A DNA stretch of 64,000 nucleotides, from assembly GCF_902652985.1 (NCBI RefSeq), contig NC_047020.1:3906001-3970000 (forward strand). Direction: 5' to 3'. Shown here piece after piece: positions 432 to 61,866 of this stretch. Under the pieces are notes generated by a model that saw nothing but the letters and a program-made list of their open reading frames with translations, ran no database searches and was not told the origin of the DNA. The stretch comes from Pecten maximus. Taxonomy: Eukaryota. Each line of letters opens with the position of its first letter. Position 1 is the stretch's first letter. Made by a program: the position numbers and the translations under genes.

Positions 432-3400
432 CTGTCTTCTGGTACATCCCTGGTTGAACTTGTTCGTCGTTCCTGATAACGTCACTTTTTCCACGTAACA
501 AACCTGTGAGTGTAAAGGAAAATGAACAAATTCACCTCATTAACGGGAAATGAAACACTCACAAAATGTTATCTCTTTAGAGAAAGATTTCCAATCGAAC
601 GTCAGACCTTCGTTTGATTACTGTTTGCAAGAGTTATACCCCATGACAGCGCCGATAGATGTAGTCAGAAATCATGTTGGTCTGTGACGTCAGAAAAACG
701 ACAGAGCCGCGATATGAAATATATAGGGGAGATAACTCATCTTAATGTGATTAAAAGAAAACTAGTTTTCTTTCTTTTCAACAAAACAACTGGTGTTGCA
801 AAAATCCCTCATGTTAATTCTTATGACAATCAGTTCATCATTTCATGACTGTGTCGTATCCTCTTAAGCGTGTCCGCTTTATTAAGGGGTGTACCCGTGG
901 TCGTAAACAGATTTTTTGATAATTATCATGTATTAAGACTTTACGATATTGATAACATTATACGATGTTCCTCCCCTTCACCCCATTAACACTTGTCAAG
1001 GCCGTGATTTCCCTGGCTTTCCTTCTGGATTACAACACCACACCTTTGGTGTCCGTGTACAATTGTTCTAGAGCGGGAAAACGTGTACCGCGGGTCTCCC
1101 ATCCAAGAGCTGATCACACTCGACGTTACTAAACTTTGAACACAGCCACAAAAGTTAGCTATTTTACTATGCAGCTGAGATGCCATCAACAGATATCGTC
1201 ACATGTGATAATTTTTCATATACAGTATTTGTATCTACCACTGAATTGGTCGAACAGGTGACCCTAGCTATTTTGTCGAACAGGTAACCAAACTATTTGG
1301 TCAAACAGATGGTTATTCTACAGACACATGTCTGGTGTTGGGTTATTCTACAGACACGTGTCTGATGTGTTGGGTTATTCTACAGACATATTTCTGGTGT
1401 GTTGGGTTATTCTACAGCCACATGTCTGGTATGTTGGGTTATTCTACAGACACATGTCTGGTGTTGGGTAATTCTACAGACACGTGTCTGATGTGTTGGG
1501 TTATTCTACAGACACGTGTCTGGTGTGTTGGGTTATTCTACAGACACATGTCTGATGTGTTGGGTTATTCTACAGACACATGTCTGATGTGTTGGGTTAT
1601 TCTACAAACAAATGTCTGGTGTGTTGGGTTATTCTACAGACACATGTCTGGTATGTTGGGTTATTCTACAGACACATGTCTGGTATGTTGGGTTATTCTA
1701 CAGACAAATGTCTGGTGCTGGGTTATTCTACAGACACATGTCTGGTGTGTTGGGTTATTCTACAGACACATGTCTGATGTGTTGGGTTATTCTACAGACA
1801 CATGTCTGGTGTGTTGGGTTATTCTACAGACACGTGTCTGGTGTGTTGGGTTATTCTACAGACACGTGTCTGGTGTGTTGGGTTATTCTACAGACACATG
1901 TCTGGTGTGTTGGGTTATTCTACAGACACATGTCTGGTGTGTTGGGTTATTCTACAGACACATGTCTGGTGTTGGGTTATTCTACAGACACATGTCTGGT
2001 GTGTTGGGTTATTCTACAGACACATGTCTGGTGTGTTGGGTTATTCTACAGACACATGTCTGATGTGTTGGGTTATTCTACAGACAAATGTCTGGTGTGT
2101 TGGGTTATTCTACAGACACATGTCTGATGTGTTGGGTTATTCTACAGACACATGTCTGGTGTTGGGTTATTCTACAGACACGTGTCTGATGTGGTGGGTT
2201 ATTCTACAAACAAATGTCTGGTGTGTTGGGTTATTCTACAGACACATGTCTGGTGTGTTGGGTTATTCTACAGACACATGTCTGGTGTGTTGGGTTATTC
2301 TACAGACACATGTCTGATGTGTTGGGTTATTATACAGACACATGTCTGATGTGTTGGGTTATTCTACAGACACGTGTCTGATGTGGTGGGTTATTATACA
2401 GACACGTGTCTGGTGTGTTGGGTTATTCTACAGACACGTGTCTGGTGTGTTGGGTTATTCTACAGACACATGTCTGGTGTGTTGGGTTATTCTACAGACA
2501 CGTGTCTGGTGTTGGTGTATTCTACAGACACATGTCTGGTGTTGGGTTATTCTACAGACAAATGTCTGGTGTGTTGGGTTATTCTACAGACACATGTCTG
2601 GTGTGTTGGGTTATTCTACAGACACATGTCTGGTGTTGGGTTATTCTACAGACAAATGTCTGATGTGTTGGGTTATTATACAGACACATGTCTGATGTGT
2701 TGGGTTATTATACAGACACGTGTCTGGTGTGTTGGGTTATTCTACAGACACATGTCTGGTATGTTGGGTTATCTACAGACAGATGTCTGATGTGTTGGGT
2801 TATTCTACAGACACGTGTCTGGTGTGTTGGGTTATTCTACAGACAGATGTCTGGTGTGTTGGGTTATTCTACAGACAGATGTCTGATGTGTTGGGTTATT
2901 CTACAGACACATGTCTGGTGTGTTGGGTTATTCTACAGACACATGTCTGGTGTGTTGGGTTATTCTACAGACACATGTCTGGTGTGTTGGGTTATTATAC
3001 AGACACGTGTCTAGTGTGTTGGGTTATTCTACAGACACATGTCTGGTGTGTTGGGTTATTATACAGACACGTGTCTAGTGTGTTGGGTTATTCTACAGAC
3101 ACGTGTCTGGTGTGTTGGGTTATTCTACAGACACATGTCTGGTGTGTTGGGTTATTCTACAGACACGTGTCTGGTGTGTTGGGTTATTCTACAGACACGT
3201 GTCTGGTGTGTTGGGTTATTATATAGACACATGTCTGGTGTGTTGGGTTATTCTACAGACACATGTCTGATGTGTTGGGTTATAATCAGTGACAAAAATA
3301 CAGGGATACCAAATGCGTTACACGGCAATAGTAATTCAAAACTAGCCACGTGAGTTTAAGGTAAGTAAGCGCACACTTATCACGGACTAGCTTCCTTATC

Positions 3401-6400
3401 TATGTTAGGACTTCCTAACGATTGCTGTTCACGACAGTGAAGAATTGTACCGGGCACTTTTATAACCTTTAGGATTCTTCGGTCTTGTTCCATACAACAC
3501 ATGATCGACTTTCGGAAAAATATATTTTAGTATACTAATGAAATCGCATATCTGTATGATATGAAATATGTCACCGTGAAGGCTAACGTATTCCTTCATA
3601 TTACCAACATATTCCAAGCCCCTTTGTTAAGATATCGCCCTTTATAAAAAAAAGTAACCCCCTCCCCCCGCTATTACCTCATCTTCCTCACACCGAACTG
3701 TCTTTGTACACTGGTTGGGATGATCAGACAAGGAGCACGCCATACATTGCGGACCCGAGGCTGTAAAGTAAAATATGCCATAATAACAAGTAAAATATCA
3801 ACAATTATCGCCACTAGATATATTTAATATTAAATGGACAATAATGCACACTTTCTGTTTGGTTAAAAATAGTGTCACGTGATTCCAGATAAAAAGTTAT
3901 TTTAACCGGCCGTGGAAAATAACTGTTCAATATGCTGGTTATTTGGGTGTTTCAAAAATAGACTAATTATGAAATACTTCCCCTTTGTAGTTTCAAAAAA
4001 CCATAAACTATCTTGTACGTTTTTGAAATATGACAAGCGATAAATTGAATGATGGAATATCGAATTATCATAAGATTTAGTGTATTAGTTTACATTTGAT
4101 TGTGTTGTGTATAGGATATAATTAAATATTAACAAATGCTTGACAAGTGTTACTTTGCATTCATTGCATAATAATTAAGAATAAAAAGTCATTTTATAAT
4201 AAAACTGTTATTGTCTTTTGATTTCGGTTAATACTTTACAATTATCGACCTGTTTGTAGGTGAATACGGCGGTTTACCAACCTGAGAGAGTGATGAAATG
4301 TTACTTTTGAATGTTGGTAAATCATCGTATTCACCTACAAACAGGTTGATAACTGTTTCCTTATATGACATTCATCCAACATTTTTACAGTTAAAGATTA
4401 TCAGACTCTGTCTTAAGATTGGATAGATCAGTTGGAAAGAGAGTGGGTGATCGATATAAGGAAGTGAGTGACGAAATATATATCCAATTATAAATATCAG
4501 GATTTCAGATGTCGGTACATTTTGAGGCCTGACGCTGTAAAACATCACTCTTTGTCTCAGCTGGACAAGCGTTTAACTAATTAATTTCGGACCGTGAATA
4601 ATACCGATGTCAGAGTGGATGATAAAAGGATAATTTGTAATGTGACTAATTCCTATCGTTAATAGTCTATCTAAATCAGCGGCTGTCAGGGTGCCAATTG
4701 ACTCCTTTTGTCATGTAGAAGGCATTGGAATGGTTTTGCTGAGATGTCCTTCGCTTGTCTTGTGTTTTGGAATTCCTCATTTCTAAAATAAAACTCCGAG
4801 ATTGTTGTTCGTTTATTATTGAGGAACGTCCCGTTGTTCATTCTGTCAGCCGCTGGTTTAGATAGATTGGTGTCCAAATGTTATGTCCAGGGTGAGAATG
4901 GTAGGAATGATTCACATTATAAACGATTGCCATTATTATTTTTGGTCTGACGATTAATCGACCCTCCATGGATATTATTAATGGTCCGGAATTCATTAGC
5001 TAAATCAGCTTGTCAAGCTGTAATAAAGAGTCTTAAACGACAGGGATTTACAGCGCCATGTCTCAAAATGGACTTCAATCTAAAACCCTCTTTTTCATAA
5101 TTTACATATTCATTTACTGAAGTTAAGTTTAAAACAATATCAAAATTATAACTGGACTTTAAATTTATGACCGAGGTTATCTTTATGATGTTGTTATTTC
5201 GGCATTCTCACTGTCTGCTATCGGTCACCTACATTCTTGTTATGAAGTTGATCAAATCAAATGATCTGTAGCATTCTTTGCTCTAGTTTTGATACCGAAA
5301 TGTAAATTAATATATTTTCAGTTTTGTGTTAGATGCTGATTGGTCTACATATGATAACTTGTTATTCCATTTAATATCTGTGACAGTGATAAAAGATCGT
5401 ATTGCACGCTCGTGAGAATGTTCCAGTGTGTTGTGTGTCCAGTTTCGTTTTATAGTTATTACTAAGGTTCTCCCTTTGAATATGATATTAATTGAATTTT
5501 ATCGAGATTGTCATCATGAAATTTGCCTGTGAAACAGACCTTTCCAGAACACAATATCTTCAATATAGTGTATTGCCCCTAGATATCCGACAGTATTTCA
5601 GAAATGCCATTCATAACACATACGCCAGGTACCAAACTCGTATTTCTACATAGAAACGAATAATATTCTACATACATGATTAAGAAACCATTCTATTGCA
5701 CTAAGGAATCAGCTATTTGGAGCTAGCCTTGTTGCTGATTAACGCTGTCATTGTGACTTTCCTATCGAAGACACCTATCATCTCCTTTTTAACTGTAATA
5801 CTAACGCTAACTAATCATTATTTCTGAACCAAAGAATAACGCTCTTCCGTGAACTTATTTCATATATTCCTCTAACCGAGAACGTACTTCGTTTTGGAGT
5901 TCTAATATGCCTGAACATGTAAATAAATTAATGTTCACGCATACTCAGCAATGTATCCAGGATTCTAACAGATTTTAGCCCCCCTCCCTTCTCCTCCCCT
6001 CATAATATAATGTAAAATTTTGAATGTTGTTGTATTCGGTCTTTTCCTATGCCGACGGTGCCAGAGAAACGGATATTCAAGGACGAACGATCTGACTAGG
6101 TGAACGCTTACCAAGGCATAGGAAGTATAGTAGTATACTATTGTATAAACAGTGCGTTTAGAATAGCGGTAAGTACTATCTTCTTTATTATATTATAAAC
6201 AGTGCGTTTAGAACAGCGGTAAGTACTATCTTCTTTATTATATTATAAACAGTGCGTTTAGAACAGCGGTAAGTACTAACTTCTTTATTATATTATAAAC
6301 AGTGCGTTTAGAATAGCGGTAAGTACTATCTTCTTTATTATATTATAAACAGCGCGTTTAGAACAGCGGTAAGTACTATCTTCTTTATTATATTATAAAC

Positions 6401-9400
6401 AGTGCGTTTAGAACAGCGGTAAGTACTAGTGTGGTGAACCACTGTTGTGTATTATGTTACCTGTCGTTCCGGACTGTCCGTCTTCTACTTTGTTTATTAG
6501 TCTCGACGTCAGGTAGACGTTTGTAAGTAATATACACCTAAGAGGTTTAGAAGCGTTCTAAAGATCCTGATTTTATAATAGGTGGCGCTAGTTTCCCTTT
6601 CGCGAGAGTATAAAAGGCGGCGGTCGAAACTAGATATGGTTCACTTCTTCGTCTGACACGAACGAGATAAGGCCGGACAAAAAGGTATTAGTTAAGATAT
6701 AGACGTGCCTGAACAAGGCTTCCCTATATCAAAGTACTTATTGTGTATGTAATAACTTACGGTAGAGTACGGAGGCAGATGTGCCTGAGTAAGGCTTCCC
6801 TTCTCCGTGGGGACTCTAGTTAGTCTATGTGGTCGGTACATCACATACGTTGTAAGTGTATTAATATCAATAGCCTTGGGTCTGCTCGTGGTTTATAAGA
6901 AAGTGTCTGAGAGCCCCGAGTGTTGTACTGTACGTACATGCCTAACGTTAAATATATGCTAGGGAGTGCTCAGTAAGAAGTGAGTACTCAGTGAGTGCTC
7001 GGTAGAAGTGAGTGCTCGGTAGCAGTGAGTACTCAGTGAAGTGAGCGCTCGGTAAAAGTGAGCACTCAGTCAAAGTGAGTGCTCACTCGGTCAATGAGTG
7101 TTGAAACTCTCTTACCCTCATATATAAAGTAATCATAGTTGTATAATGTGATATTGCCCGGAATAAACCCCAGATAGGGAAGATTCATTTTGGTCAGGGA
7201 GCACTCATTATTTCATGTAGTATATTATTCCGTTCTGTTAATATAACTAGCTCTCTGTTTAGGTATATTTGTATTTCTACTGTAGGATTACTCAGAGGAA
7301 CTGAGCAATCATTGTGTTATATTTCAACTGTATAGCTAGTTGGTACTTGATGTATATTACATAAACACAGCCAGGTCAGCTGTATATTTCTGTATATTTT
7401 TGCACTGAGGACTCGAGTAAAACTAATTATATGTTAGACAATATGGATCATCAGTAGTGACTGATACGGACCCTGTAAACGTCACATAATTTGGTGGCAG
7501 CGGTGGTGATCCTGTTGTCTATATTTTTGGTGTGCTCGAATACTCAGGTTTAAATAAAATTTGATATCAGAATTAAACTGTTATTTTTGTATTGATGAAA
7601 ATGGCCAATGGAACTCCTCGCATTGATTTGATGGACTCTGAAAAGCGGTTTGGTGAGCGAAGTGACCAAAGTTATCATTCAACACCAAAACAGCCTATGT
7701 CAAAAGGGAGCAGTCATTATAGAGACTCTGGATTTATGTCTATGCATGCAGCTGATAAAACTCGTGCAGAAAAGAGGGACTTGTCTGTGCTCTATAGCAG
7801 TATGATGGACAATCACGAAGATCTTTCATCTCCAGATGAGATAGATAAGGAGATTGAACAAATGCAGGAGCAGTTACGCCGGCTTGATATTGAAAATCAG
7901 AGCCTGCGAGAGACTTCGAGTAGACATGGACTGAAGGATTCATCGACATATAAAGGGAATCATTGTGTCCGAAGTAAAACAGAGAGCAGTCCTAAAGTAA
8001 GGTTCTCTGACAGCACATATTCGCCTCATTTTGATGAAGGGAATAAGGAGGACTATATTACCTGTCGTGACAGCAATCAGAGGAGGTCAGCTCGATTAAA
8101 GGAGAAGGAACATATATCAAGCTATGACTCTGCTCGGGTGAAGAGAATGAATCCAAGGGCAATGTTGGATATGGATGATAGTGATTACGAGGATCAATCT
8201 TCAGTAAGAAAACACAAAACAAAATTTGTGTCTGTTAAAGCTTCTACTTATGATGGCACAACACCTTGGAGGGATTACCTGTCTCATTTTGAGGCATGCG
8301 CTCGAATCAATAGATGGACAGAGCAGGAGATGGGTCTGTATCTAGCTGTAAGTTTGAGGGGACAAGCTCAAGGTATACTTGGGGATTTGCCTGCCAGGAA
8401 ACAGGAGCATTATTTCTCACTGATAACAGCTCTTGAACAACGGTTTGCCCCACCCAATCAAACGGAGCTTTATCGAGTACAATTGCTGGAGAGGAGGCAG
8501 CGAGCCAATGAGACACTTCCAGAACTTGGTCAAGCTATTCGAAGATTAGTCAACTTGACTTATCCCACTGTTGAAGTTGGGGTGAGAGAAACATTGGCCA
8601 AACAACAGTTTCTAGAATCCTTAGCTGACTCAGATATGCGAATTCGTATAAAACAAGCCAGACCTGATAATCTGACGGATGCGATTCATCTTGCAGTAGA
8701 GCTGGAAGCTTACAAGAAAGCAGAAAAACATGGAAATGAAGGTCGCTCATATCTCAGAACAGCAAGTACAGAGAGTACTGAATCGACACATTCAGCAAAA
8801 TCTGAGAAATCTGCGATGGAATCTATGTTGAGTAGTATCCAGCAAAAGTTGGAGAAGATGCAAACTGATATTAGTCAGCTCCAAGCTGTAAGGAAAAAGC
8901 AGAACCGACCTGCCCAGCAAGGACAGGATGCAAAGAATAGCACTGATCGACGTTGTTATAAGTGTCAAGAAATAGGACATTTACGCCGAGACTGCCCTCA
9001 GCTTAAGAAAGAGTCAAAGAAAGCATCAAATGGAGTAGCTAATCCGGTAAGGACAAGGACGAGAAAGCGAAGTTGTAAACCATCCGCTGGGATTGGAATT
9101 TCCTCGGCTGCTCAAGAGGCTGGACTATACATCAATGCTGAGGTACAGCATACCAAAGTGAAACTTTTGGTTGATACTGGAGCCACAGTGACCATTCTGT
9201 CACAGGATGCATATGAGAAAATTCCAGAGGAGAGAAGACCCAAATTGAAAGAGGTTAAAAATGATATCATGGCCGCTAATGGCAGTGAGTTGAAAGTCCT
9301 TGGTCAGGGAGGATTTATGATTAAGCCAGAAGGTTGCCGGGACGTGTACTTTGAGGCTGTGGTAGCTAAACTAAGCACAGAAGGAATTCTTGGTCTTGAC

Positions 9401-12400
9401 TTCTTGAAATCAAGAAATGGCTTGATTGATTTAAAGCGAGGATCTTTAGTGTTGGACGACGTGCCAGTGGACACTAAGTATGAGGGTACACTTGGATGCT
9501 TTCGAGTTGTTGCCTCCGAAAAGATAACCATTCCTGGTAAGAGTGAGATGGTTATTGCTGGGGAATTACGTTCTCCAGCAGGTGAACATATGAAGAGCGA
9601 GTCACTTCTTATTGAAGGAGCTGACTCCTTCCTGAAAAATGACAAGGCTCTCGTTGCCCGATCATTGGTTTGTTATGAGACTACAGTTCCTGTGAGACTC
9701 ATGAATCTTCAGGAAGATCCGCAAACGGTCTACCCAGGTACAAATATTGCTCGTGCTAGTCCTGTAACAAGTGTCATTGAGACAACATCCTCGTCTAGTT
9801 GTGCACCCTCTGGAGAGCTCAGAGGGGATTTACACCAACTACTACAGAGGTCAAAAGAACACCTGACTCCGGAACAGAGCAATAAAGTCAAATCTTTGTT
9901 ATTGGCATACAAGAATCTGTTCGCAGCCACTGACAGTGATCTTGGACGAACAACAGTGGTGAAACACAAAATAGAAACTGGTGATGCCCGACCCATCAAA
10001 CAACCACTTAGGAGAGTGCCAGCACATTTGAGCCCTGAGGTGGATAGACAAGTCGATGATATGCTGAACCGTGGAGTAATTCAGAAGTCTACCAGCCCCT
10101 GGTCATCGGGTATTGTTTTAGTACAAAAGAAAGACGGTAGTCTCAGATTCTGTGTTGACTATAGGCGTCTCAATGCTGTGAGCATTCATGATGCCTATCC
10201 ATTGCCACGCATTGATGAGGCATTGGACCATCTTTCGGGGTGTACTTGGTTTTCTACACTCGACCTGAATGCAGGGTACTGGCAAGTTGAACTAGAGAGG
10301 GAGGATCGTCCTAAAACTGCCTTTTCAACTAGGACTGGATTATATGAATTCCAGGTGATGCCTTTTGGGTTGACTTCTGCTCCAGCCACATTTGAGCGGC
10401 TGATGGAGACTGTGTTAGCCGGACTTCAGTGGCAGATTTGTCTCATTTATTTAGATGATGTGATCGTGGTTGGAAAGGATTTTGAGGACATGTTACAAAA
10501 TCTGCAAACTGTGTTTGAAAGACTCCTTACTGCAGGATTGAAACTTAAAACAAAGAAATGCCAACTGTTTGGAAAAGAGGTGATCTATCTCGGACATGTG
10601 ATATCAGAGGAAGGAATAGCTACTGATAATGAAAAAGTGAAAGTTGTTGAACAGTGGCCTGTGCCGAAGAACATTAAAGAGGTGAGATCATTTCTTGGAT
10701 TCTGTGGATATTACAGGAGGTTTGTAAGAAACTTTTCACAGATTGCTAGCTGTCTGCACCGACTGACTGAGAAAGACAGAACTTTTGAGTGGACCGATGC
10801 CTGCCAGGAGGCATTCACCACACTAAAGCATCAGCTAATCAATGCCCCTATACTGGCCCATCCAGATTTCACTCAACCGTTTATTCTGGACACTGATGCA
10901 AGTGACAAAGCTATTGGTGCAGTTCTTTCTCAAAACATTGATGGGAATGAGAGACCTATCGCATATGCAGGCCGGATGCTGACGAAATCTGAAAGGAGTT
11001 ACTGTGTAACAAGAAAAGAGTTGTTAGCAGTTGTGCACTTTGTGAAACATTTCAAACACTACCTGTATGGTAGGAGGTTTACGGTGAGAACGGATCACAG
11101 TTCTCTACGCTGGCTACTGAACTTTAAGGCGCCAGAGGGTCAAATGGCCAGATGGCTACAGGTTTTGAGTTCCTATAACATGGACATCAAACACAGACCA
11201 GGAAGTCAGCATCGCAATGCGGATGCCTTAAGTCGGATACCATGCCGACAATGTGGGTTCGATCCCATGTGGGAGAAACATACCGAGACGGAGACTGAAA
11301 ATACTGCCATGGCATGCAGCCCCAAAACGAAGGAGGACTCGGAAGACCAAAAATCAAAATTTGAGTCGTCAATACTTCAACAAAAGCAGGAAGATGATGC
11401 TGATATTGCAGTAGTGTTTAAATGGGTGAGGGAAGGAGAGAAACCTCCATACAAGGAAATTGGTGACCGGAGCATAATCGTGAAAACATTATGGGCCCAA
11501 TTTGAATCCCTGGTGATACATGGTGACATGTTGTATCGGAAAAACCCCAATTCAGCAACAAGTCTACAAGCAATTGTTCCTGCAGCAGAAAGACGAACAG
11601 TGTTGACCCACAGTCATGACAATCGGAGTTCTGGACACTTGGGTATAAAGAAGACTTTGGCCAAAATTCGACAAAGTTTCTATTGGCCAGGAATTCAAAA
11701 CGATGTGAAACAATATGTGATCGGATGTCCTCAGTGTAGCAAACGAAAGAGTTCAAGTAAAACCAAGCGAGCCCCTATGCAGATGGTTGAGTCGGGTTTT
11801 CCCATGGAGAGGATAGCCATAGATATTCTCTGTGAACTCCCAAGTACACAGCAGGGTAACCGACACATATTGGTAGTTTCGGACTACTATACCAAGTGGA
11901 CCGAGAGTTTTGCCATGCCAAACATGGAAGCACAGACTGTGGCCAAGATTCTCGTAGAGGAGGTGATAGCTAGGTTTGGTGTACCTTACAGCCTCCATTC
12001 CGATCAGGGATCCCAATTTGAAAGTTCTCTCTTTCGGGAGATGTGCTTATTACTACAAATCAACAAAACACATACCACTCCCTATCATCCCAAATCAGAT
12101 GGAATGGTAGAACGGTTCAACAAGACGCTTGTGACCATGCTGAGTGCCTTTGTAAATAACCATCAGACTGATTGGGACGAACACTTGCCATATGTAATGA
12201 TGGCGTACCGCTCTACAGAACACGAGACCACTGGGAATTCGCCTAATGCTATGATGCTAGGAAGGGAAACGAGTACTCCCCTAGACATTCAGTATGAAAT
12301 GCCAAGGAATATCAAGACCATTCCTCAAAACCAATGGGCTTGGCAGTTAAAGGAGAAGATGGAAAATGCACACGAACTGGTTAGGAAACACTCAAAAGGT

Positions 12401-15400
12401 GCGATGCTCCGACAAAAGCGTTATCATGACCAGAAGTTGTCTTGGACCAAGTTTGAGCCAGGTGATTCTGTCTATGTCTTCTTCCCAAATATTCTGGCTG
12501 GGACCACCCACAAGTTAGCAAGCCGATGGCGGGGACCTTTTAAGATACTCACTAGATTGACAGAGGTGACCTATAGGGTTCCGTGTGGTTATAGGGGAAA
12601 GACTCAAGTGATCCATGCTGACCGCATGAGACCGAGACACCCCCAAATATTGCGTGGTGAAAGTAGAGCGGAAGCATTCGGACGAAAAGATGTGCAAGTT
12701 CAGGTGGATGAAACGTGTTTTGAGCAAAGTCAGAATGAGAGTGTAGAGAAAACTGAGAAAAACTTGGTGCTTGAGGAATTAGGTGAAAAATTCAGTAGTG
12801 AGAATGAGTGTGAACCTAATGGAGCAAACCCAAGGCGTACGCGACGTAAACCTCAATGGCATTCTGATTATACTTCATGCTACTAGAATGGTCACTACTG
12901 TTTAGTAAACTACCTCTCTTTGTCATTGCAGACATCCCCATAATGGTTAAGACCAAGACAACTCCCGTCAAACAGTGCCCTATGTGCTCCTTCCGTGCCA
13001 ACAACATGGATGACATGAGGAAGCATATCCTGGAGTGTGGCCTAGAGACAATGGAAAGGAAGACTCTCACGTGCCCTGATTGCAGCTACAAAACTTTCCG
13101 TGCTGCTAATATGAATCGGCACCGTAAACGTCATACTGACAACGACAGGAGTGCTCCCAAGGCTGTGGAACAGAGTTTGGAGGAAGACCGGCCTTCAACG
13201 TCATCCCAAGCTCCCGCTGTACAAACTGATGTAGAGAGCTGGAAGGCGCAAGATCCTGGTGACCTCCTGGGGGAGATATCTGAATCTTCTGAGGGTAATG
13301 GCTTGTCTTCTGAAGATGAGGGAGACAGTCTTCTGGTCGGGCGTACTATCAGAAGACCAACGCGACCAGAACCAGTTCGAGCCCCAAAGAGGAAGTCAGA
13401 AACTGCAACTTCAGTCAAGCCCCATCCGAAGGATCCTATCAACATGGTTCCAATGCCAGTGGTAAGCACTGCCCCTAGTGCAAAGAAAACATGCACCTAC
13501 GTTAATGTTGCCACTCAGACAGAGCAAGAGCCGCCTGCTAGCCGAAGGACTGTAACGAAGACTACCCGGTATTCAGAGGGAGGACGGGACATCCAGATAG
13601 TCGAGTTTTTCGAGTTCTTTGAGCAGGAGAACCTCAATCGCTTTTCCTAAATCGATTTTCATGTAACTTCCTGAATAAACCCTTGAGTGTTAGTTATTGT
13701 TTTAGCTTTACTTGTGTTAGAACGTGGGGACACGTGTTGCTCGGAGGCGTGGGTAGTGTGGTGAACCACTGTTGTGTATTATGTTACCTGTCGTTCCGGA
13801 CTGTCCGTCTTCTACTTTGTTTATTAGTCTCGACGTCAGGTAGATGTTTGTAAGTAATATACACCTAAGAGGTTTAGAAGCGTTCTAAAGATCCTGATTT
13901 TATAATAGGTGGCGCTAGTTTCCCTTTCGCGAGAGTATAAAAGGCGGCGGTCGAAACTAGATATGGTTCACTTCTTCGTCTGACACGAACGAGATAAGGC
14001 CGGACAAAAAGGTATTAGTTAAGATATAGACGTGCCTGAACAAGGCTTCCCTATATCAAAGTACTTATTGTGTATGTAATAACTTACGGTAGAGTACGGA
14101 GGCAGATGTGCCTGAGTAAGGCTTCCCTTCTCCGTGGGGACTCTAGTTAGTCTATGTGGTCGGTACATCACATACGTTGTAAGTGTATTAATATCAATAG
14201 CCTTGGGTCTGCTCGTGGTTTATAAGAAAGTGTCTGAGAGCCCCGAGTGTTGTACTGTACGTACATGCCTAACGTTAAATATATGCTAGGGAGTGCTCAG
14301 TAAGAAGTGAGTACTCAGTGAGTGCTCGGTAGAAGTGAGTGCTCGGTAGCAGTGAGTACTCAGTGAAGTGAGCGCTCGGTAAAAGTGAGCACTCAGTCAA
14401 AGTGAGTGCTCACTCGGTCAATGAGTGTTGAAACTCTCTTACCCTCATATATAAAGTAATCATAGTTGTATAATGTGATATTGCCCGGAATAAACCCCAG
14501 ATAGGGAAGATTCATTTTGGTCAGGGAGCACTCATTATTTCATGTAGTATATTATTCCGTTCTGTTAATATAACTAGCTCTCTGTTTAGGTATATTTGTA
14601 TTTCTACTGTAGGATTACTCAGAGGAACTGAGCAATCATTGTGTTATATTTCAACTGTATAGCTAGTTGGTACTTGATGTATATTACATAAACACAGCCA
14701 GGTCAGCTGTATATTTCTGTATATTTTTGCACTGAGGACTCGAGTAAAACTAATTATATGTTAGACAATATGGATCATCAGTAGTGACTGATACGGACCC
14801 TGTAAACGTCACACTAACTTCTTTCGTCGGCATCGAAAAAGATCGCCCCCATTATGTAAGAATTATGTATGTCCAATAACAATGCCCTTGCTAAGAAAAG
14901 GCAATAAAATATATTTATCAAAACAGCACATCTACTTAATAGAGCTTAGTATCCCTATAATACTTACAACGCTTGATCTGCGACACCTCCTCTGAGTAGG
15001 GGAGACTGAACACAAGGACTGGTACTACTGTAATGGGAACACAGGTTAGTAAATGATCGTTTACAATTAATGTGAGACTAAAAGAAAAGAAAATATTATT
15101 GAATTTCAATATTTTACCTAAAACGAACTTTTGTTGGAAATGTAATTTGTACGTACATATATTAACATTTAATATGGGATTTATGTACACGATGGCCATA
15201 TCGTGCTGATTATTGAACTATAATTATTATTCCGCGATGGTTCAAATTTTCATAGATTTACAACAAATGTAAACAATGTTATAGATATAATGAAACAGGC
15301 TATATCATATTTTCTCTATGTTTCGATATTTTATTTTATCATCCAACATATTGAAAATACAAATCCTGAATGCAGCAACCATTCCCATATAAGAATTAGG

Positions 15401-21900: not shown

Positions 21901-24207
21901 GTATTTCTTCAGCAATAAGATGTATATATTCTTATTTATTTTATATACAGTGGAACTTCGTTAACTCGAAGTCGACGGGACCACGAAAAAACTATAGTTT
22001 TTGGTGAAAAGTTTGGTCAATATTTGTCAACATTATATAATCATTATAACTTCGCTCTGTCGCTCATCAGTTTAGTGTGAAGACTGGTCAATACATGTAA
22101 ATATATATGTAATGTTTCGTTATGTCACTTGTAATTTGGTGTAGTTTTGCCGATAAACAGTCACGATAAAGTTTCTTTCACTTAGTCACTTCAATAACGA
22201 TCTGATGTGCAAGTCATGTTTGCAAAAGGTAAACGATAAAACGGAATTCGACAAAATAACAAGTTATTAATGTCAAAACAAATAACCGTTTAAGTTTAAC
22301 ACAGATTGCATACAAAACGTAACAGAACCATTACCTTTTATTGGACATATATAAAATACTGTTTGATCGGCCTACTTACTTTTTATTGATAACCACGCCA
22401 TTTCCATGTGTATTAGCACCGGAAGTTGGGCTTCGCATGTGCGTATAAAATGTTACTGTAACTGAGTTGGCGTTTTATCCAATTTAATAGACAGCACTGA
22501 CCGTTACAGTTGTACTCTGAACACCTCGGCAGTAATAACGCTATTGTTTCAGCAGTTTAAAGATTTAATAGGCGCCGGTGACTGTGTCATTACTACACCT
22601 GTAAAAACATCAGCCGGGTAGATCTACCGGTGTGTCAGAGATTAGTTCCGCTTGAGCGAACGGGTAGATGAGTTGTTGACTATCGTGTGTACTGATATCG
22701 GCGACCGCCTTGGGAAATTACCTGATGTAAGTAAAGCAGTACTTTTTATCACCAAGACTTGTTGTTATAAGATTCAACCGACAATTTCTTTTATGAATTT
22801 ATGAAACACTTATAATAGCATGTAGGTTAGTAGTGCCGATATGTTCAGTATTACAAACGGAATTTAGCTCTTAAAAAATGTCGGCGTTTGCCACCGATCG
22901 ACGAAAATTATACTTCGAGTTATTCGAACATTTCAAGTAGGATTTTTATTGTTGGGACCAAATTTTTACTTCGTATTATCCGAGTTTTTCGAGTTATCCG
23001 AATTCGAATTTTCCGAGTTTTTTTTACTAAGATAAAGAGAGAATTCGGCCGGGACCGGCGAGGTACTTCGAGTTAAGCGGGGTATTCGAGTTATCCGAGT
23101 TCGAGTTAACGAAGTTCCACTGTATACATATTTAATTAAGACAGAAGCAGTCAGGGTTAAAGAGCCCTGGGTTCAGCCTCACGAACGATGATAGAAGCAA
23201 CCAAGGTTGAAGAACCCTGGGTTCAGTCTCCCGAACTATAAGTTTATTTCAAGTAGGAGGGTTTACATTCAGCTTTCATCTTTCATTCCATCGGTACAAT
23301 TCTGTATAGACACCTTTTCGGTAAAAAATTGTGAATCTTATTCATAAGCAATTATTTGAGAATACGAAATATAAACACACAAAATAATACACATGTACGT
23401 AATAAGTTAACTTTACTAGATCTGTATTACTTTCCTGTTTTTTGTGTGTGTTTAGTTTATTCCTGCGACCATATCATGCGATCTGTGTTTTAGCTGGATA
23501 TTTCCAGAATGCTCAGCAATACATCGCAACCACCAATACCGAAGCAAGGTTCTAAAAGTTGTGACAGGAATTTGTCGATACATTGGTATGCTTTTTCCTT
23601 AAACAATGCATTATTTATAAAACACTATTTGATAAAGTGATCGTCTCTATTACAGTCTTCCTGGACAACTTAAATTTCAAATGTCTCAAACTTCGATCTC
23701 GCTCAATCAAAATATAATACTGTATATTGATATATTTCAGGAATACTTCGGGTAAGTCTTAAATAATAAAGTTTTCATTGAACAATTAAAAAAGATTTAT
23801 TTAAATATCATTATACAATAACAGTTATTGTACTAGATACTATCGAAAATTGTAAGAAATATTCCGAATGTCACAGGGGAAAATGTCGACGAACCTCTTC
23901 CAGAGTGTATTGCGGTCCCCTACATTAGCTAGCGCATGGAACCTTTGTTAGAGATTGAATATTAACAACAGGGGAAAAAGATAGGTTACGGCATTAATGG
24001 TGGTTTCGCAGTCTGGTAAAATATAACTGTATGAAGTGTTTCTAGATACAAAATAAATGACTTAAAAACAGAAATATTCTTGTCTGGACGGGAAAAAGTT
24101 TTAATAAAAAGATAATTGTTTACTTTTTAGTTGAATAAGCATTTACCTATTACAATACTAGCATGTTCGAACGGATGACTTACCTGGAGTATTAGTAAGG
24201 AATGCAT
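18955..24207 (-). CDS. Secreted lipocalin, apolipoprotein D-like (~192 aa)
   Basis: Exons 24207-24184, 21865-21595, 20650-20586, 19173-18955 with GT-AG and matched phases; signal peptide MHSLLILQVIYVGVSQA; SCR1 YFGLWYEIGK, SCR2-like YTVIYLD, SCR3 LLSRKP; TATA-like sequence near 24280. Confidence 0.9.
21948..23122. mobile_element. Tc1/mariner (pogo-like) MITE in lipocalin intron 1
   Basis: Perfect 23-bp TIR CAGTGGAACTTCGTTAACTCGAA, TA on both sides, subterminal TTCGAGTTA repeats, no transposase. Confidence 0.9.
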
Positions 24208-46400: not shown

Positions 46401-47331
46401 CCCCATCGTCCCACATTAACTCTCACCACCATCGCCGTCCACATAGTCCCACATTAACTGTCCACCACCATCGCCGTCCCCATCGTCCCACATTAACTGT
46501 CCTACACCATCGCCGTCCCCATCGTCCCACATTAACTGTTCACCACCATCGCCGTCCCCATCGTCCAACATTAACTGTCCACCACCATCGCCGTCCCCAT
46601 CGTCCCACATTAACTCTCACCACCATCGCCGTCCCCATCGTCCCACATTAACTCTCACCACCATCGCCGTCCCCATCGTCCCACATTAACTCTCCACCAT
46701 CATCGCCGTCCCCATCGTCCCACATTAACTGTTCACCACCATCGCCGTCCCCATCGTCCCATATTAACTGTTCACCACCATCGCCGTCCCCATCGTCCCA
46801 CATTAACTCTCACCACCATCGCCGTCCCCATCGTCCCACATTAACTGTTCACCATCATCGCCGTCCCCATCGTCCCACATTAACTGTCCACCACCATCGC
46901 CGTCCCCATCGTCCCACATTAACTGTCCTACACCATCGCCGTCCCCATCGTCCCACATTAACTCTCACCATCATCGCCGTCCCCACCGTCCCACATTAAC
47001 TGTCCACCACCATCGCCGTCCCCATCGTCCCACATTAACTGACCACCATCGCCGACCCCATTCTCCCACATAAACTGACCACCATCGCCGTCCCCATTCT
47101 CCCACATAAACTGACCACCATCGCCGTCCCTTTCCCTTTATTATTGCCCGTCCCCTAAAAAATCCCATTATCGAAATAAAGTCTTTTTTTGTGTGTATTT
47201 TAGGATACACAGTTGTGGTTGATGGAGCCCGCGTCACACAGAAAGACTTAAGTGCTACTAACGGCGTCGTCCATAAGATTGATCACGTGCTCATACCTTC
47301 TAGTCTCAAGGCGAAAATCGCCGCTCTCTAA
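34461..47331 (+). CDS. Secreted two-FAS1 domain protein, TGFBI-like (gene B, 297 aa)
   Basis: Exons 34461-34608, 40063-40280, 44243-44429, 45480-45578, 45869-45982, 47204-47331; GPFTLFAPDD, LKYHVV, NGVIHRISRVL, NGVVHKIDHVLIP; AATAAA at 47348. Confidence 0.93.
35083..39505. repeat. 36/38-bp minisatellite (AACTCTAGAACAAGGCGGGGTGATGTCGACATAACT), ~120 copies
   Basis: Tandem array in FAS1-B intron 1; explains ORFs 35370-39250. Confidence 0.98.
40788..40918. repeat. Inverted repeat of a palindromic interspersed element
   Basis: ATATCTAACAGTATCTTCAGTAATAC ... GTATTACTGAATACACTGTTAGATAT. Confidence 0.6.
42151..42261. repeat. Spacer-less palindrome (74-bp perfect core 42170-42243)
   Basis: TAGTTTCATCGGGGTATGAAACAAATTTTGTTTG|CAAACAAAATTTGTTTCATACCCCGATGAAACTA. 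Confidence 0.9.
42662..44066. repeat. 25-bp minisatellite (CAGACGGTTATACTCAGATCTTGGT), ~55 copies
   Basis: Tandem array in FAS1-B intron 2. Confidence 0.97.
46090..47130. repeat. 38/39-bp C-rich minisatellite (CATTAACTCTCACCACCATCGCCGTCCCCATCGTCCCA), ~27 copies
   Basis: Fills most of FAS1-B intron 5. Confidence 0.95.
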
Positions 47332-53850: not shown

Positions 53851-54271
53851 TGGAAATATGAATATGAAGAGAGGCATTATAGCGAGGGAGACGGAGATAA
53901 AAGAGAGTGAGAGAATGAGTGTAACACTCTGTAATGTATTTTGTAATTTATTGTGATATTATGCTCATTTTCAATAAATATTTATTTTGGTATTTCTAAG
54001 AGTTTATAACGATTTGTTCATGGCGGTAGATTGCTGTATATAATGACGTCATTACCGCCATCACACAACCTGGGTAGTAGGCAGAGTAAGTTACATGTAT
54101 TTACAGATGTCTGGTTTGATAACCCGGGTTTGTAGTGTCCCCCTATACTATACTATCGTCACAGACACCAGTCTACAGTTATATCTGACTCTCCTTTATA
54201 TCATTCACATGAATGGTTGTTGATTTCGACAATGACGCTGTGTCGTACTGACAGAGACGCCAATGCGACAA

Positions 54272-54694
54272 CAATCTAATTAAAATCTAGATGGTCATTC
54301 TCACTACGTTACATGAACATCTAACAACATCCCATAAGGGGTCACGTCAGGGTGACCTTTTGGATTAGCCAATCAAATGACTACTTCCAGAATCTTAGAA
54401 GTGAATTTTATGTCCGAATTAGCATGACTAGAGTGCATAGCTTGTATAATATGTCAATTTGTTTCAAGTCATTTCGTCCCAGAAAGCATTTAGCTATATA
54501 CTGTGCCGAGATAGTTTGCTTCAGATGCATGCTATGACGAAATGTTTTGCTTCGATGACATCGAAAAATTGCCAATTCGCCCTGAAAGTGAAATACACAC
54601 ATCTCAGAGGTCATCAGAACGTGACCCCTAATGGGATGTTGTTAGATGTTCATGTAACGTAGTGATAATGACCACCTATATTTTAATTAGATTG
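54272..54694. mobile_element. MITE with long (~80-bp) terminal inverted repeats; miniature related hairpin at ~54915-54990
   Basis: CAATCTAATTAAAATCTAGATGGTCATTCTCACTACGTTACATGAACATCTAACAACATCCCAT is mirrored at the right end. Confidence 0.8.
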
Positions 54695-55254
54695 ATGCGA
54701 CAATACATCATGCGAAGAACATAAATCACTCCGTCGATGCAACATAATTCAATGTCGCGTTGTTGTATCATTTTGTCGCTTTGTCTCATCGGTGGTGCGT
54801 ACATTTTAGTGCGCTGTCTCGCTATCGCATTGGTACAATGTACCAACGCAATGAGGCCAAAATCAGCGATCATACCCATCACATGGAAGATGAAATTTTG
54901 TACATACAATAGAAATAATCTAATTAACATAAGATGTTCATTATCCGTCCGTAAACTCCAGATAATGAACATCTAGTTTTAATTAGATTGATAATAGGAA
55001 CAATACCTGATACCAAACGCTGAGAGCTGAGAGCTGGTGTTTTCGAATAAATGTAAACCATGTGGATACTGGGTAAAATCATATTCCTCTGCTGACAGCA
55101 TAGAGGAAAAGTTGGGATCAATTTCTTGCCACAGAGTCGACAACACTTAAATCACCCAGAAAGTCAACATCACTGCTATAAGTTCTCTTGTACCTATGCT
55201 ACGATCCAAATTCATCGTCACACCATCAGTCACGAATGACGAAACGGTATAAGA

Positions 55255-57991
55255 GGGTACTGGTCACAAAGGTGACAAAACTAAACATTGATAACTAGTA
55301 CTGGTCACAAAGGTGACAGAACTAAACCTTGATAACTAGTACTGGTCACAAAGGTGACAGAACTAAACCTTGATAACTAGTACTGGTCACAAAGGTGACA
55401 TAACTAAACCTTGATAATTAGTACTGGTCACAAAGGTGACATAACTAAACCTTGATAACTAGTACTGGTCACAAAGGTGACAAAACTAAACTTTGATAAC
55501 TAGAACTGGTCACAAACGTAACAGAACTAAACCTTGATAACTAGTACTTGTCACAAAGGTAACAGAACTAAACCTTGATAACTAGTACTGGTCACAAAGG
55601 TGACAAAACTAAACCTTGATAACTAGTACTGGTCACAAAGGTGACATAACTAACTTTGATAACCAGTACTGGTCACAAAGGTGACAAAACTAAACCTTGA
55701 TAACTAGAACTGGTCACAAAGGTGAGGGCACTTAACCGTGATAAATAGTACTGGTCACAAAAGTGACAGAAATAAACCTTGATAACTAGTACTGGTCACA
55801 AAGGTAACCGAACTAAACCTTGATAACTAGTATTGGTCACACAGGTAACAAAACTAAACCTTGATAACTAGTACTGGTCACAAAGGTGACAAAACTAAAC
55901 CTTGATAACTAGTACTGGTCACAAAGGTGACAGAACTAAACCTTGATAACTAGTACTGGTCACAAAGGTGACAGAACTAAACCTTGATAACTAGTACTGG
56001 TCACAAAGGTGACATAACTAAACCTTGATAACTAGTACTGGTCACCAAGGTGACAAAACTAAACCTTGATAACTAGTACTGGTCACAAAGGTGACAGAAC
56101 TAAACCTTGATAACTAGTACTGGTCACCAAGGTGACAAAACTAAACCTTGATAACTAGTACTGGTCACAAAGGTAACAGAGCTAAACCTTGATAACTAGT
56201 ATTGGTCACACAGGTAACAAAACTAAACCTTGATAACTAGTACTGGTCACAAAGGTGACAAAACTAAACCTTGATAACTAGTACTGGTCACAAAGGTGAC
56301 AGAACTAAACCTTGATAACTAGTACTGGTCACAAAGGTGACAGAACTAAACCTTGATAACTAGTACTGGTCACAAAGGTGACATAACTAAACCTTGATAA
56401 CTAGTACTGGTCACCAAGGTGACAAAACTAAACCTTGATAACTAGTACTGGTCACAAAGGTGACAGAACTAAACCTTGATAATTAGTACTGGTCACCAAG
56501 GTGACAAAACTAAACCTTGATAACTAGTACTGGTCACAAAGGTAACAGAACTAAACCTTGATAACTAGTATTGGTCACACAGGTAACAAAACTAAACCTT
56601 GATAACTAGTACTGGTCACAAAGGTGACAAAACTAAACCTTGATAACTAGTACTGGTCACCAAGGTAACAAAACCAATCCTTGATAACTAGTACTGGTCA
56701 CAAAGGAGACAGAACTAAACCTTGATAACTAGTACTGGTCACATAGGTGACATAACTTAACCTTGATAACTAGTACTGGTCACAAAGGTGACAGAACTTA
56801 ACCTTGATAACTAGTACTGGTCACAAAGGTGACAGAACTAAACCTTGATAACTAGTACTGGTCACCAAGGTGGCAGAACTAAACCTTGATAACTAGTACT
56901 GATAACAAAGGAAACAGAACTAAACCTTGATAACTAGTACTGGTCACAAAGGTGACAAAACTAATCCTTGATAACTAGTACTGGTTACAAAGGTAACAGA
57001 ACTTAACCTTGATAACTAGTACTGGTCACAAAGGTGACAGAACTAAACCTTGATAACTAGTACTGGTCACAAAGGTGACAGAACTTAACCTTGATAACTA
57101 GTACTGGTCACAAAGGTGACATAACTAAACCTTGATAACTAGTACTGGTCACCAAGGTGACAAAACTAAACCTTGATAACTAGTATTGGTCACACAGGTA
57201 ACAAAACTAAACCTTGATAACTAGTACTGGTCACAAAGGTAACCGAACTAAACCTTGATAACTAGTACTGGTCACAAAGGTAACAGAACTAAACCTTTAT
57301 AAATAGTACTGGTCACAAAGATGACAGAACTAAACCTTGATAACTATTACTGGTCACAAAGATGACAGAACTAAACCTTGATAACTAGTACTGGTCACAA
57401 AGGTGACAGAACCTAACCTTGATAACTAGTACTGGTCACAAAGGTAACGGAACTAAACCTTGATAACTAGTACTGGTCACCAAGGTGACAAAACTAAACC
57501 TTGATAACTAGCACTGGTCACAATGGTGACAGAACTAAACCTTGATAACTAGTACATGTCACAAAGGTGACATAACTAAACCTTGATAACTAGTACTGGT
57601 CACAAAGGTGACGAAACAAAACCTTGATAACTAGTACTGGTCACACAGGTAACATAACTAAACCTTGATAACTAGTACTGGTCACAATGGTTACAGAACT
57701 AAACCTTGATAACTAGTACTGGTCACAAAGGTGACAGAACTAAACCTTGATAACTAGTACTGGTCACAAAGGTGACAAAAACTAAACCTTGATAACTAGT
57801 ACTGGTCACAATGGTGACATAACTTAACCTTGATAACTAGTACTGGTCACACATGTTACAAAACTAAACCTTGATAACTAGTACTGGTCACAAAGGTGAC
57901 AGAAATAAACCTTGATAACTAGTACTGGTCACAAAGGTGACAGAAATAAACCTTGATAACTAGTACTGATCACAAACATGACAGAACTAAA
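55255..57991. repeat. 41-bp minisatellite (TTGATAACTAGTACTGGTCACAAAGGTGACAGAACTAAACC), ~65 copies
   Basis: Tandem array starting about 30 bp past the FAS1-C stop codon. Confidence 0.98.
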
Positions 57992-61000: not shown

Positions 61001-61866
61001 TGTTGTGTTTGAATGATGTCAGTTATTGTGAAATGAATGATGTCAGTTGTTGTGTTATGGATGATGTCAGTTGTTGTGCTTGAATGATGTCAGTTGTTGT
61101 GTTTGAATGATGTCAGTTATTGTGAAATGAATGATGTCAGTTATTGTGTTATGAATGATGTCAGTTATTGTGTTATGAATGATGTCAGTCATTGTGTTAT
61201 GGATAATGTCAGTTATTGTGTAATGAATGATGTCAGTTATTGTGTTATGGATGATGTCAGTTATTGTGTTATGGATGATGTCAGTTATTGTGTTATGGAT
61301 GATGTCAGTTATTGTGTAATGGATGACGTCAGTTATTGTGTTATGAACGATGTCAGTTATTGTGTAATGCAATATTTAATTGATAATTCGGCTATCCCAC
61401 TCCTAGCTTATGTTATTTTGGTTTCTATTTTCCCTTTAGTATTAAAAAAAGAATGGACATATGTAGATATTATTATTTGTAATATACCCATTCGGATACT
61501 TGTTAACGTACCGTCAGGGAGAGCGGTATTGACGCCTGGCTGGTTTGGGAGATATGTTTTTGTAACTTACCCCGTTCGGATACTTGTCATCGTACAGACA
61601 GGGAGAGTATTGACGCCTGGCTGGTTTGGGATATATGTTTTTGTAACTTACCCCGTTGGGATACTTGTTGACGTAGATTGTTCTGTTGTTGAGGGAAGTG
61701 ACGGTCATGCCATTGGTGAGGAGTGGTGCGATCAGGATACCATTTGTCACGTGGTATAGAAGAAGGTTGGAAAGTGCTGTCGTGTCAACCCCCTGTAGGT
61801 TACTGAGCAGAGCGGGGGGCAGCTTATTAAAGGCATCATTGGTTGGGGCGAACATGGTGAGCGTAC
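58018..61866 (-). CDS. Two-FAS1 domain protein, TGFBI-like (gene C, 5'-partial; exon 1 not found in window)
   Basis: Exons 61866-61652, 59981-59789, 59639-59544, 59114-59001, 58112-58018; TLTMFAPTNDAF, LLYHV, NGVLHAINAVM, FTVFAPNNDAF, NGVIHQIDSIL. Confidence 0.9.
58395..58905. repeat. 31-bp minisatellite (TGATTGTTATTAGAGTTATCGATATAAATAT)
   Basis: About 16 copies in the last FAS1-C intron. Confidence 0.95.
60058..61369. repeat. 24-bp minisatellite (GATGATGTCAGTTATTGTGTTATG)
   Basis: About 55 copies in a FAS1-C intron; explains the DDVSYCVM ORFs. Confidence 0.97.
61477..61675. repeat. 81-bp tandem duplication spanning a FAS1-C exon end and splice donor
   Basis: TTGTAACTTACCCCGTT(G/C)GGATACTTGT at 61641 and 61560, with a degenerate copy at 61477. 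Confidence 0.85.

Follow-up and report, generated by a model that had tools for sequence, protein, structure and literature searches.

Zinc-finger proteins are familiar above all as a means by which hosts fight retrotransposons, and the Pecten maximus element described here, a Ty3/gypsy retrotransposon, seems to encode one for its own long terminal repeat (LTR). The element lies in a stretch of 64,000 nucleotides (assembly GCF_902652985.1, contig NC_047020.1, positions 3,906,001 to 3,970,000) that we refer to throughout as the window; its accessory gene, ORF2, is located 3' of pol, and its LTRs carry a tandem array of GAGYRCTC sites. Element-encoded DNA-binding activators of their own promoters include Tas of foamy viruses and TnpA of maize Spm. 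These proteins have other folds and belong to other element classes, whereas in the present LTR half-sites are scarce upstream, and dense downstream, of the splice donor.

VANC, encoded by VANDAL elements of Arabidopsis, resembles the candidate system in that an element-encoded protein is associated with a short motif that is dense in the element's non-coding parts, including introns (PMC5735166). VANC motifs multiply by tandem-repeat formation and differ between related elements (PMC5735166); in our case the motif is tandemly repeated in the window and not in two relatives, L002 and L003. VANDAL is a plant Mutator-like DNA transposon, whereas this is an animal LTR retrotransposon whose protein is of the C2H2 type and, judged by element class and Pfam families, is not a VANC member. 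Moreover, while binding and anti-silencing have been demonstrated for VANC (PMC5735166), for ORF2 they are inferred, and the sites here occur in both orientations. If ORF2 does bind the array, an LTR retrotransposon of animals would follow the same logic as VANC in plants, and its recognition code would be so simple that sequence alone could predict it.

CERV, of the Caenorhabditis elegans element Cer1, is a nuclear accessory protein of a Ty3/gypsy-type element. In Rev-type fashion, and as proposed for ORF2, its message is spliced, whereas gag-pol requires the unspliced form (PMC10309623). It is large, carries a cysteine loop and acts on RNA, whereas ORF2 has a finger of the classical base-reading type, lies 3' of pol and shows no conserved RNA fold. 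The third open reading frames of rotifer LTR elements also lie 3' of pol and are typically expressed from a spliced message, but they encode esterase, exonuclease, coiled-coil or membrane proteins, and the main text of that paper does not contain the word zinc (PMC5408684). The same word is missing from the text of PMC6238403 and PMC13524379, that of PMC12440569 names the Gag knuckle only, and a preprint (10.64898/2026.08.24.746577) does not mention retrotransposons. Our literature search, which had supplements, subscription journals and Repbase outside its scope, yielded neither a C2H2 accessory open reading frame nor this motif for bivalve gypsy elements.

GAG half-sites in the long terminal repeats

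The array consists of eight GAGYRCTC sites starting at 6964, 6982, 6993, 7010, 7027, 7043, 7060 and 7077 of the 5' LTR (spacings of 18, 11, 17, 17, 16, 17 and 17 from site to site) and, together with an isolated ninth site at 7199, it recurs in the 3' LTR at an offset of 7327 bases. These sites, and their position downstream of a TATA box in a long LTR, had been reported in a first-pass annotation of the window and are reproduced here. The window contains 20 matches to the pattern compared with 1.72 expected, a number reached in none of 100 shuffles; 18 of them constitute the two LTR copies and the other two are located in pol and ORF2. The array is a real feature. Two properties attributed to it earlier need revision. 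Only three of the eight array sites are perfect palindromes (GAGTACTC twice and GAGCGCTC once), the remaining five having a TG or CA centre, and it is the degenerate pattern rather than most of its members that is self-complementary. The supposed phasing, a 17-bp period, is due to tandem duplication (Tandem Repeats Finder: period 17, 5.6 copies, 81% matches) and, since 17 bp amounts to about 1.6 helical turns, the sites do not lie on one helix face and helical phasing was rejected. In units 2 to 8, both triplets, GAG and CTC, are unchanged in 7/7 and the spacers vary.

Among 800-bp tiles of host DNA, 6 of 68 gave z>2 for GAG[CT], with a maximum of 6.7, and all of these lay in minisatellites; the LTR segment scored 7.3. 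A tandem array by itself can yield such a motif excess, and the window alone is therefore no proof of function.

Relatives were sought in a metagenome scan, from which 124 pattern matches gave eight loci (L001 to L008). L001 is the same element, L002 and L003 are usable relatives, and L004 to L008, which carry a Tyr+3 finger, end before the part of the LTR that follows the donor. The relative contigs are collapsed assemblies and L002 lacks the last approximately 40 bases of its LTR. Compared with the window, identity is 38% in ORF2 and 73% in pol for L002 (LTR about 960 bp, finger-2 helix RKNNLTR) and 34% and 62%, respectively, for L003 (LTR about 750 bp, helix KSSNLTR). They represent distinct families with Asn+3/Arg+6 fingers, and their LTRs give no alignment longer than 24 nt. 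Viral contig scans with pol and two family profiles, and a genome contig scan with one profile, yielded no relatives; the conserved polypurine-tract word matched 3 viral and 9 prokaryotic stretches, none with pol or ORF2 by tblastn, which were treated as chance.

GAG[CT] was counted on both strands of the LTR downstream of the donor and compared with shuffled sequence. The window gave 32 against 12.0 expected (0/1000 shuffles) and, with the array removed, 15 against 7.6 (6/1000), while L002 gave 23 against 9.9 and L003 15 against 5.6 (0/1000 for each). In each of the four segments following the donor, GAG/CTC was the highest-ranked of 32 triplets (z 4.9, 2.9, 4.2 and 2.4), and the top 5-mers were GAGCA in L002 (13 against 1.2 expected) and GAGCC in L003 (6 against 0.4). 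No tandem array underlies the motif in the L002 or L003 LTRs and, because GAG is again the top triplet in these relatives without tandem repeats, what is conserved is the clustering of GAG(Y) half-sites and not a palindromic array. Pairs of the form GAG-N1-4-CTC number 10 in the window, 3 in L003 (3/1000 shuffles) and 1 in L002, where 0.38 is expected (305/1000, not significant); neither the palindrome nor the 17-bp period, both put forward earlier as the functional unit, is therefore retained as such. Upstream of the donor, GAG[CT] occurs once in each of the three LTRs (4.1, 3.8 and 2.3 expected for the window, L002 and L003, respectively), a depletion that we treat as a post-hoc hint only; L004 and L008, with 5 against 4.9 and 2 against 3.4 expected, show no depletion or none that can be distinguished. 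The count in pol is 25 against 31.8 expected. In L001 the array is intact, and none of the 12 differences downstream of the donor falls in a GAG/CTC triplet.

These counts bear on one rival account, in which the array would be a minisatellite under no selection. Duplication of a 17-bp unit with CpG at its centre would have been followed by decay of methyl-CpG, giving rise to the TG, CA, TA and CG centres and to the A or G that follows CTC. The Tandem Repeats Finder call agrees with this, as do the similar z-scores of host minisatellites, the abundance of minisatellites in the LTR flank and the window, and the coincidence of the variable core positions with those exposed to CpG decay. Such a process accounts for the origin of the array but not for the recurrence of the word, which is enriched when the array is left out and again in two relatives with unalignable LTRs and no tandem array, and we consider this explanation quite improbable.

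Two further observations were made on these repeats. Four of 24 sequencing runs were compared with the window, as contigs only, which tend to lose rare transcript forms: X1 (recorded as RNA), X2 and X3 (guessed to be RNA) and X18 (of unknown kind). In X18, depth reaches 110 over 6989-7028 compared with about 10 across the rest of the LTR, and the loose ends resemble variant array units; this points either to collapse of the repeat or to a relative of higher copy number whose array is similar. In L003, GAG[CT] stays dense beyond the LTR, into the leader and the start of gag (5275-5800; 15 and 10 per 400 bp).

ORF2 and its candidate DNA-reading finger

The second of the two fingers of ORF2 carries Arg(-1), Asn(+3) and Arg(+6), the residue type of the published GAG modules RRDNLNR, RSDNLVR and RSGNLTR (PMC5260015), and it is predicted to read GAG, the half-site of the array. 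GAGYRCTC corresponds to two 4-bp subsites, GAGY and RCTC, arranged tail to tail. ORF2 had 306 hits (E<=0.001) in a search covering 1.84 billion representatives. The best 150 of them were examined, and a family alignment was built from 44 sequences of about 210-330 residues that were picked by eye for family motifs, with long multi-finger host proteins and fragments omitted. Finger 2 could be scored in 42 of the 44 rows, with K or R at -1 in 40 and R at +6 in 40, whereas +3 is N in 25, D in 9, Y in 5 and another residue in 3, a variation as found in base-reading fingers. Sequenced scallop genomes already contain family members of the Asn+3, Asp+3 and Tyr+3 types, so that it would be possible to examine by computation whether a transposon protein and its target evolve together. 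Examples are XP_021357695.1 (Mizuhopecten) and XP_060074497.1 (Ylistrum) with Asp+3, XP_021377251.1 and XP_069109266.1 with Tyr+3, and XP_056002749.1 with Asn+3.

Finger 1 does not look like a reader of DNA bases because its helix is acidic (E or D at +2 in 29/38 rows) and because, compared as a single finger with solved chains, it matches the NEMO finger best (E=0.007). The NEMO finger binds ubiquitin. The assumption in the first-pass annotation that both fingers read DNA was accordingly dropped. A classical multi-finger C2H2 factor would have tandem base-reading fingers joined by short canonical linkers and was rejected for ORF2, in which base-contact residues at -1, +3 and +6 are present in finger 2 only and the fingers are separated by an 11-residue linker modelled mostly as helix.

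In the AlphaFold model of ORF2 (mean predicted local distance difference test score, pLDDT, 73; predicted template modelling score 0.30), two fingers are followed by a disordered middle and a C-terminal hairpin. Foldseek with this model gave nothing at E<=0.001, just generic C2H2 fingers, and in the protein atlas whole ORF2 led to unnamed or generic zinc-finger clusters and residues 92-235 to no usable match. Among 163 candidates, five hits including ORF2 itself gave the nearest named relatives, from the scallops Mizuhopecten (72%) and Argopecten (53%). Nine of 20 clusters looked up carry a name, all from scallop, oyster or invertebrate metagenome; several of the named relatives are multi-copy and some are labelled 'RE1-silencing transcription factor-like'. 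If ORF2 acts as proposed here, such multi-copy bivalve genes would probably be retrotransposon accessory genes. ORF2 is kept in the deleted derivatives L004, L006 and L007, where it comes after remnants of gag or protease and hardly any pol, or none, intervenes.

The disordered region contains a TQT-type anchor of the kind recognised by LC8 (DYNLL), with Q in 41 of the 44 rows and T at +1 in 39; the preferred residues are present at +2 (D/E) in 33 and at -4 (D/S/N) in 37. For the nuclear regulators ASCIZ/ATMIN and Panoramix, LC8 reportedly brings about dimerisation by way of TQT motifs located in disordered regions; they are host proteins, whereas ORF2 has a single motif and is a predicted LC8 client. 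The ORF2 motif fits the published LC8 preferences (PMC6607443) and offers a possible route to dimers.

A further conserved segment is the N-terminus. The start Met is aligned in 34 of the 44 rows, and within these a small second residue (V, P, A, T or G) is found in 34/34, Thr3 in 30, Lys4 in 32, Thr6 in 32 and Arg8 in 20, counts that are somewhat inflated because the family was collected by similarity to ORF2. The register is that of the histone H3 tail, although a plainer alternative is that it may be a cyclin-dependent kinase-type TPxK site. If ORF2 acts as proposed, it would be a candidate histone-tail mimic encoded by a retrotransposon, of which our literature search revealed no example. 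ORF2 also has an acidic WxxxDPG segment, followed by a basic segment.

On balance we lean towards the array being an amplified part of a GAG(Y) half-site field that serves the element's own regulator, ORF2, in a VANC-like manner. The link to ORF2, proposed in the first-pass annotation from the palindromic shape of the sites, is strengthened on a different basis, because the finger-2 residues predict GAG and GAG(Y) is enriched in both testable relatives with the same finger type. Finger 2 would read GAG and the following pyrimidine on double-stranded DNA, and the host hub protein LC8 would clamp two ORF2 chains by way of the TQT motif, placing two reading fingers on long disordered tethers that could engage pairs of half-sites at loose spacing. 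Such pairing would explain both the abutting inverted pair GAGY and RCTC and the scattered sites in the relatives. Specificity for the element's LTRs would then reside in the density of sites and not in the 8-mer, the transcribed part of the LTR being filled with half-sites, to which tandem duplication contributed in this element, while decay of the central CpG was tolerated.

The weakest step is the effect of bound ORF2, which we suppose to promote the element's expression; the most likely route would be relief from silencing by means of the H3-tail-like N-terminus and the acidic WxxxDPG segment. If the proposed link holds, anti-silencing or activation has an even chance of being the outcome, a switch from spliced to full-length RNA is a somewhat less likely one, and autorepression would be a minor prospect; the repression implied by the earlier term 'operator' finds no support. 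A broader picture, doubtful at present and offered tentatively, is of a widespread bivalve Ty3/gypsy lineage in which a spliced regulator combining an H3-tail decoy, a finger resembling a ubiquitin binder, a reprogrammable finger and an LC8 clamp changes together with its half-site fields and provides family-specific anti-silencing.

Several points weigh against a role for ORF2. The motif and the segment limits were picked after viewing the sequences and there are just two independent relatives, while the sparing of triplets in L001 does not reach significance (p=0.22). Fingers of the Arg/Asn/Arg type are common, as are GAG targets; a single finger covers just 3-4 bp, and finger 1 misfits the code for the next triplet. 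LC8 binding fails for many TQT peptides (PMC6607443). The relatives show a plus-strand bias (L002, 16 against 6.8 expected on the plus strand and 7 against 3.3 on the minus strand, the latter reached in 49/2000 shuffles; L003, 10 against 3.1 and 5 against 2.5, the latter reached in 169/2000), which leaves room for a reading of RNA, and the splice joint discussed below depends on one low-depth contig from a run guessed to be RNA. Finally, the co-variation of array and finger proposed earlier has been followed within one finger type: three elements with the same +3 and +6 residues share GAG, and the viral-, genome- and metagenome-contig scans yielded no relative that combines a complete LTR with another type of finger 2.

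Given that the compared elements share a finger type, every enrichment count suits any GAGY-binding protein equally well, including a host insulator or enhancer factor, the target of ORF2 then lying elsewhere. The model for this is Su(Hw), a host protein whose sites on Drosophila gypsy lie outside the LTR, whereas here they are inside it and accompanied by an element-encoded candidate. The likeness consists in a dense cluster of zinc-finger sites, 12 in gypsy, near the 5' end of the element (PMC7828040). GAGYRC and GAGCA, the longer forms of the motif in the window and in L002, overlap, and the contig accessions share a prefix, which would suit a common host factor, but L003 favours another 3' base (GAGCC) and the match between finger 2 and the half-site would be left as a coincidence. 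We regard a host factor as unlikely.

Transcript layout and readings at the RNA level

ORF2 is probably made, in env-like fashion, from an RNA spliced from the donor at 6685 to the acceptor at 12931, which would place the array in its intron, 280 bases downstream of the donor. A contig of run X2 joins 6675 to 12930 with 6 letters between (one contig, depth 2.5, short side 45 letters), a weak demonstration that we read as an exon end at 6684, GT at 6685 and AG at 12930-12931 in a slightly different copy. AG/GT is found at the corresponding place in L002, L003 and L004, and a pyrimidine tract with CAG directly precedes the ORF2 ATG in all eight loci. A contig of X1 matches the LTR through 6684, after which 29 letters bear no relation to it; this may be a transcript started in the LTR and spliced to host DNA. 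The TATA box at 6609 is favoured as promoter over the TATA-like word at 7121 by the splice evidence and by the layout of the relatives, since L002, L003 and L004 have, by eye, a TATA-like word about 70-80 nt ahead of the donor; the downstream word was rejected as main promoter, the spliced contig containing sequence upstream of 6684. The polyadenylation-type hexamer at 13674-13679, which could terminate the ORF2 message ahead of the 3' LTR, reads ATTAAA in three of the four runs and in L001, AATAAA and ATTAAA thus alternating among copies.

This layout is compatible with ORF2 being a Rev- or CERV-like export or splicing factor that acts on GAGY words in nascent, intron-containing RNA. ORF2 apparently comes from a spliced RNA with the sites in its intron, the spliced accessory protein CERV is required for export of Cer1 genomic RNA (PMC10309623), the motif is biased to the plus strand in the relatives, and a basic segment follows the acidic one in ORF2. 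The plus strand gives folding z-scores of only -0.07 in L002, -0.12 in L003 and -0.5 in the window segment without the array (25 shuffles each), and a conserved RNA fold in the post-donor LTR was rejected on these values; conserved RNA structure is unlikely, although ORF2 may read the word in unstructured RNA. Moreover, both orientations are over-represented in the window (16 of each), and if the AATAAA of the LTR is used the 3' end of the spliced RNA would carry the same words, which would then not single out the unspliced RNA. Taken together, this renders a Rev-like role improbable, and we continue to favour DNA as the target.

Element-specific RNA signals, such as palindromes for dimerisation or packaging, hairpins or decoy splice donors, were considered because the RNA of 6950-7110 folds at -70.2 kcal/mol (z=-8.2, 0/200 shuffles) and GTGAG is present in seven array units. 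Tandem near-palindromes always fold in this way, however, the structure is absent in the relatives and matches to Rfam stay within noise (best E=0.47). The GTGAGT words of the array, suggested earlier as splice donors, provided no joint in the contigs of the four runs, where the sole joint to the ORF2 acceptor, itself weak, starts at 6685, and they were rejected as the ORF2 donor. Signals of this kind appear highly improbable as the reason for the array.

Features of the element and its surroundings

The element is an intact and very young Ty3/gypsy (Metaviridae) element, the two LTRs differing by one mismatch (6518). It shows direct LTRs with TG...CA ends, a primer-binding site and a polypurine tract (Table 1), and the Pfam domain order gag, protease, reverse transcriptase, RNase H and integrase. 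An env-carrying, errantivirus-like element was rejected: ORF2 matches only zinc-finger families and its model consists of fingers, disorder and a hairpin. The element is thus a Ty3/gypsy element without env. Where a target-site duplication of 4-6 bp would be expected, its flanks, CTAG on the left and CTAA on the right, agree in 3/4 bases.

Table 1. Coordinates of features of the Ty3/gypsy element, in window numbering.
Feature	Position	Strand	Basis
5' LTR, 1057 bp, TG...CA	6430..7486	+	LTR comparison
TATA box (TATAAAAG), likely promoter, upstream of array	6609..6616	+	sequence
Splice donor GT (exon end 6684)	6685..6686	+	X2 contig joint; AG/GT in relatives
Field of 32 GAG[CT] half-sites (16 per strand), array included, downstream of donor	6765..7418	both	counts against shuffles
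Tandem array of 8 GAG-YR-CTC sites (paired half-sites)	6964..7084	none	period mostly 17
Second TATA-like word, just downstream of array, no evidence of use	7121..7129	+	sequence
Only AATAAA within LTR; if used in 3' LTR, array falls in R	7162..7167	+	sequence
Ninth, isolated GAG-CA-CTC site	7199..7206	none	pattern scan
Primer-binding site, presumably for tRNA-Leu	7492..7506	+	sequence
Uninterrupted gag-pol open reading frame, 1763 residues (CCHC knuckle, protease, reverse transcriptase, RNase H, integrase)	7595..12886	+	open reading frame and Pfam
Splice acceptor AG after pyrimidine tract, 11 nt before ORF2 ATG	12930..12931	+	X2 joint, sequence
ORF2, accessory protein of 235 residues	12943..13650	+	open reading frame, protein searches
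ORF2 N-terminus, histone H3 tail-like (Thr3, Lys4, Thr6, Lys9, after Met removal)	12943..12972	+	alignment
Finger 1, C2HC, acidic helix, NEMO/optineurin-like	12976..13038	+	alignment, PDB search
Finger 2, C2H2, helix RAANMNR (Arg53, Asn56, Arg59)	13072..13134	+	Pfam, code comparison
LC8 (DYNLL)-type TQT motif, residues 187-194	13501..13524	+	alignment
Predicted C-terminal beta hairpin, residues 200-227	13540..13623	+	AlphaFold, pLDDT 91-92 over 201-220
AATAAA between ORF2 and 3' LTR	13674..13679	+	sequence
Polypurine tract, conserved in L001-L004 and L008	13743..13756	+	sequence, locus comparison
3' LTR with second array copy (14291-14411, 14526)	13757..14813	+	LTR comparison

Contigs of X1 and X3, from two studies, both omit 3266 bases (9770-13045, from reverse transcriptase to the start of ORF2), with diverged sequence ahead of the joint and non-canonical ends, and this probably reflects a deleted derivative in the population. 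Cover of pol is low in the three runs recorded or guessed as RNA and was not used as evidence.

The insertion point lies at the end of a 50-bp minisatellite (6144-6428, 5.7 copies). Long minisatellites with periods of 24-41 occupy 1311-3283, 35082-39504, 42662-44046, 46031-47130, 55257-57991 and 60052-61369, and the other long open frames of the window are mostly due to minisatellites. Two inverted-repeat pairs, at 21934-23136 (41-nt arms, 1121 apart) and 54269-54697 (97-nt arms, 235 apart), look like small non-autonomous DNA transposons.

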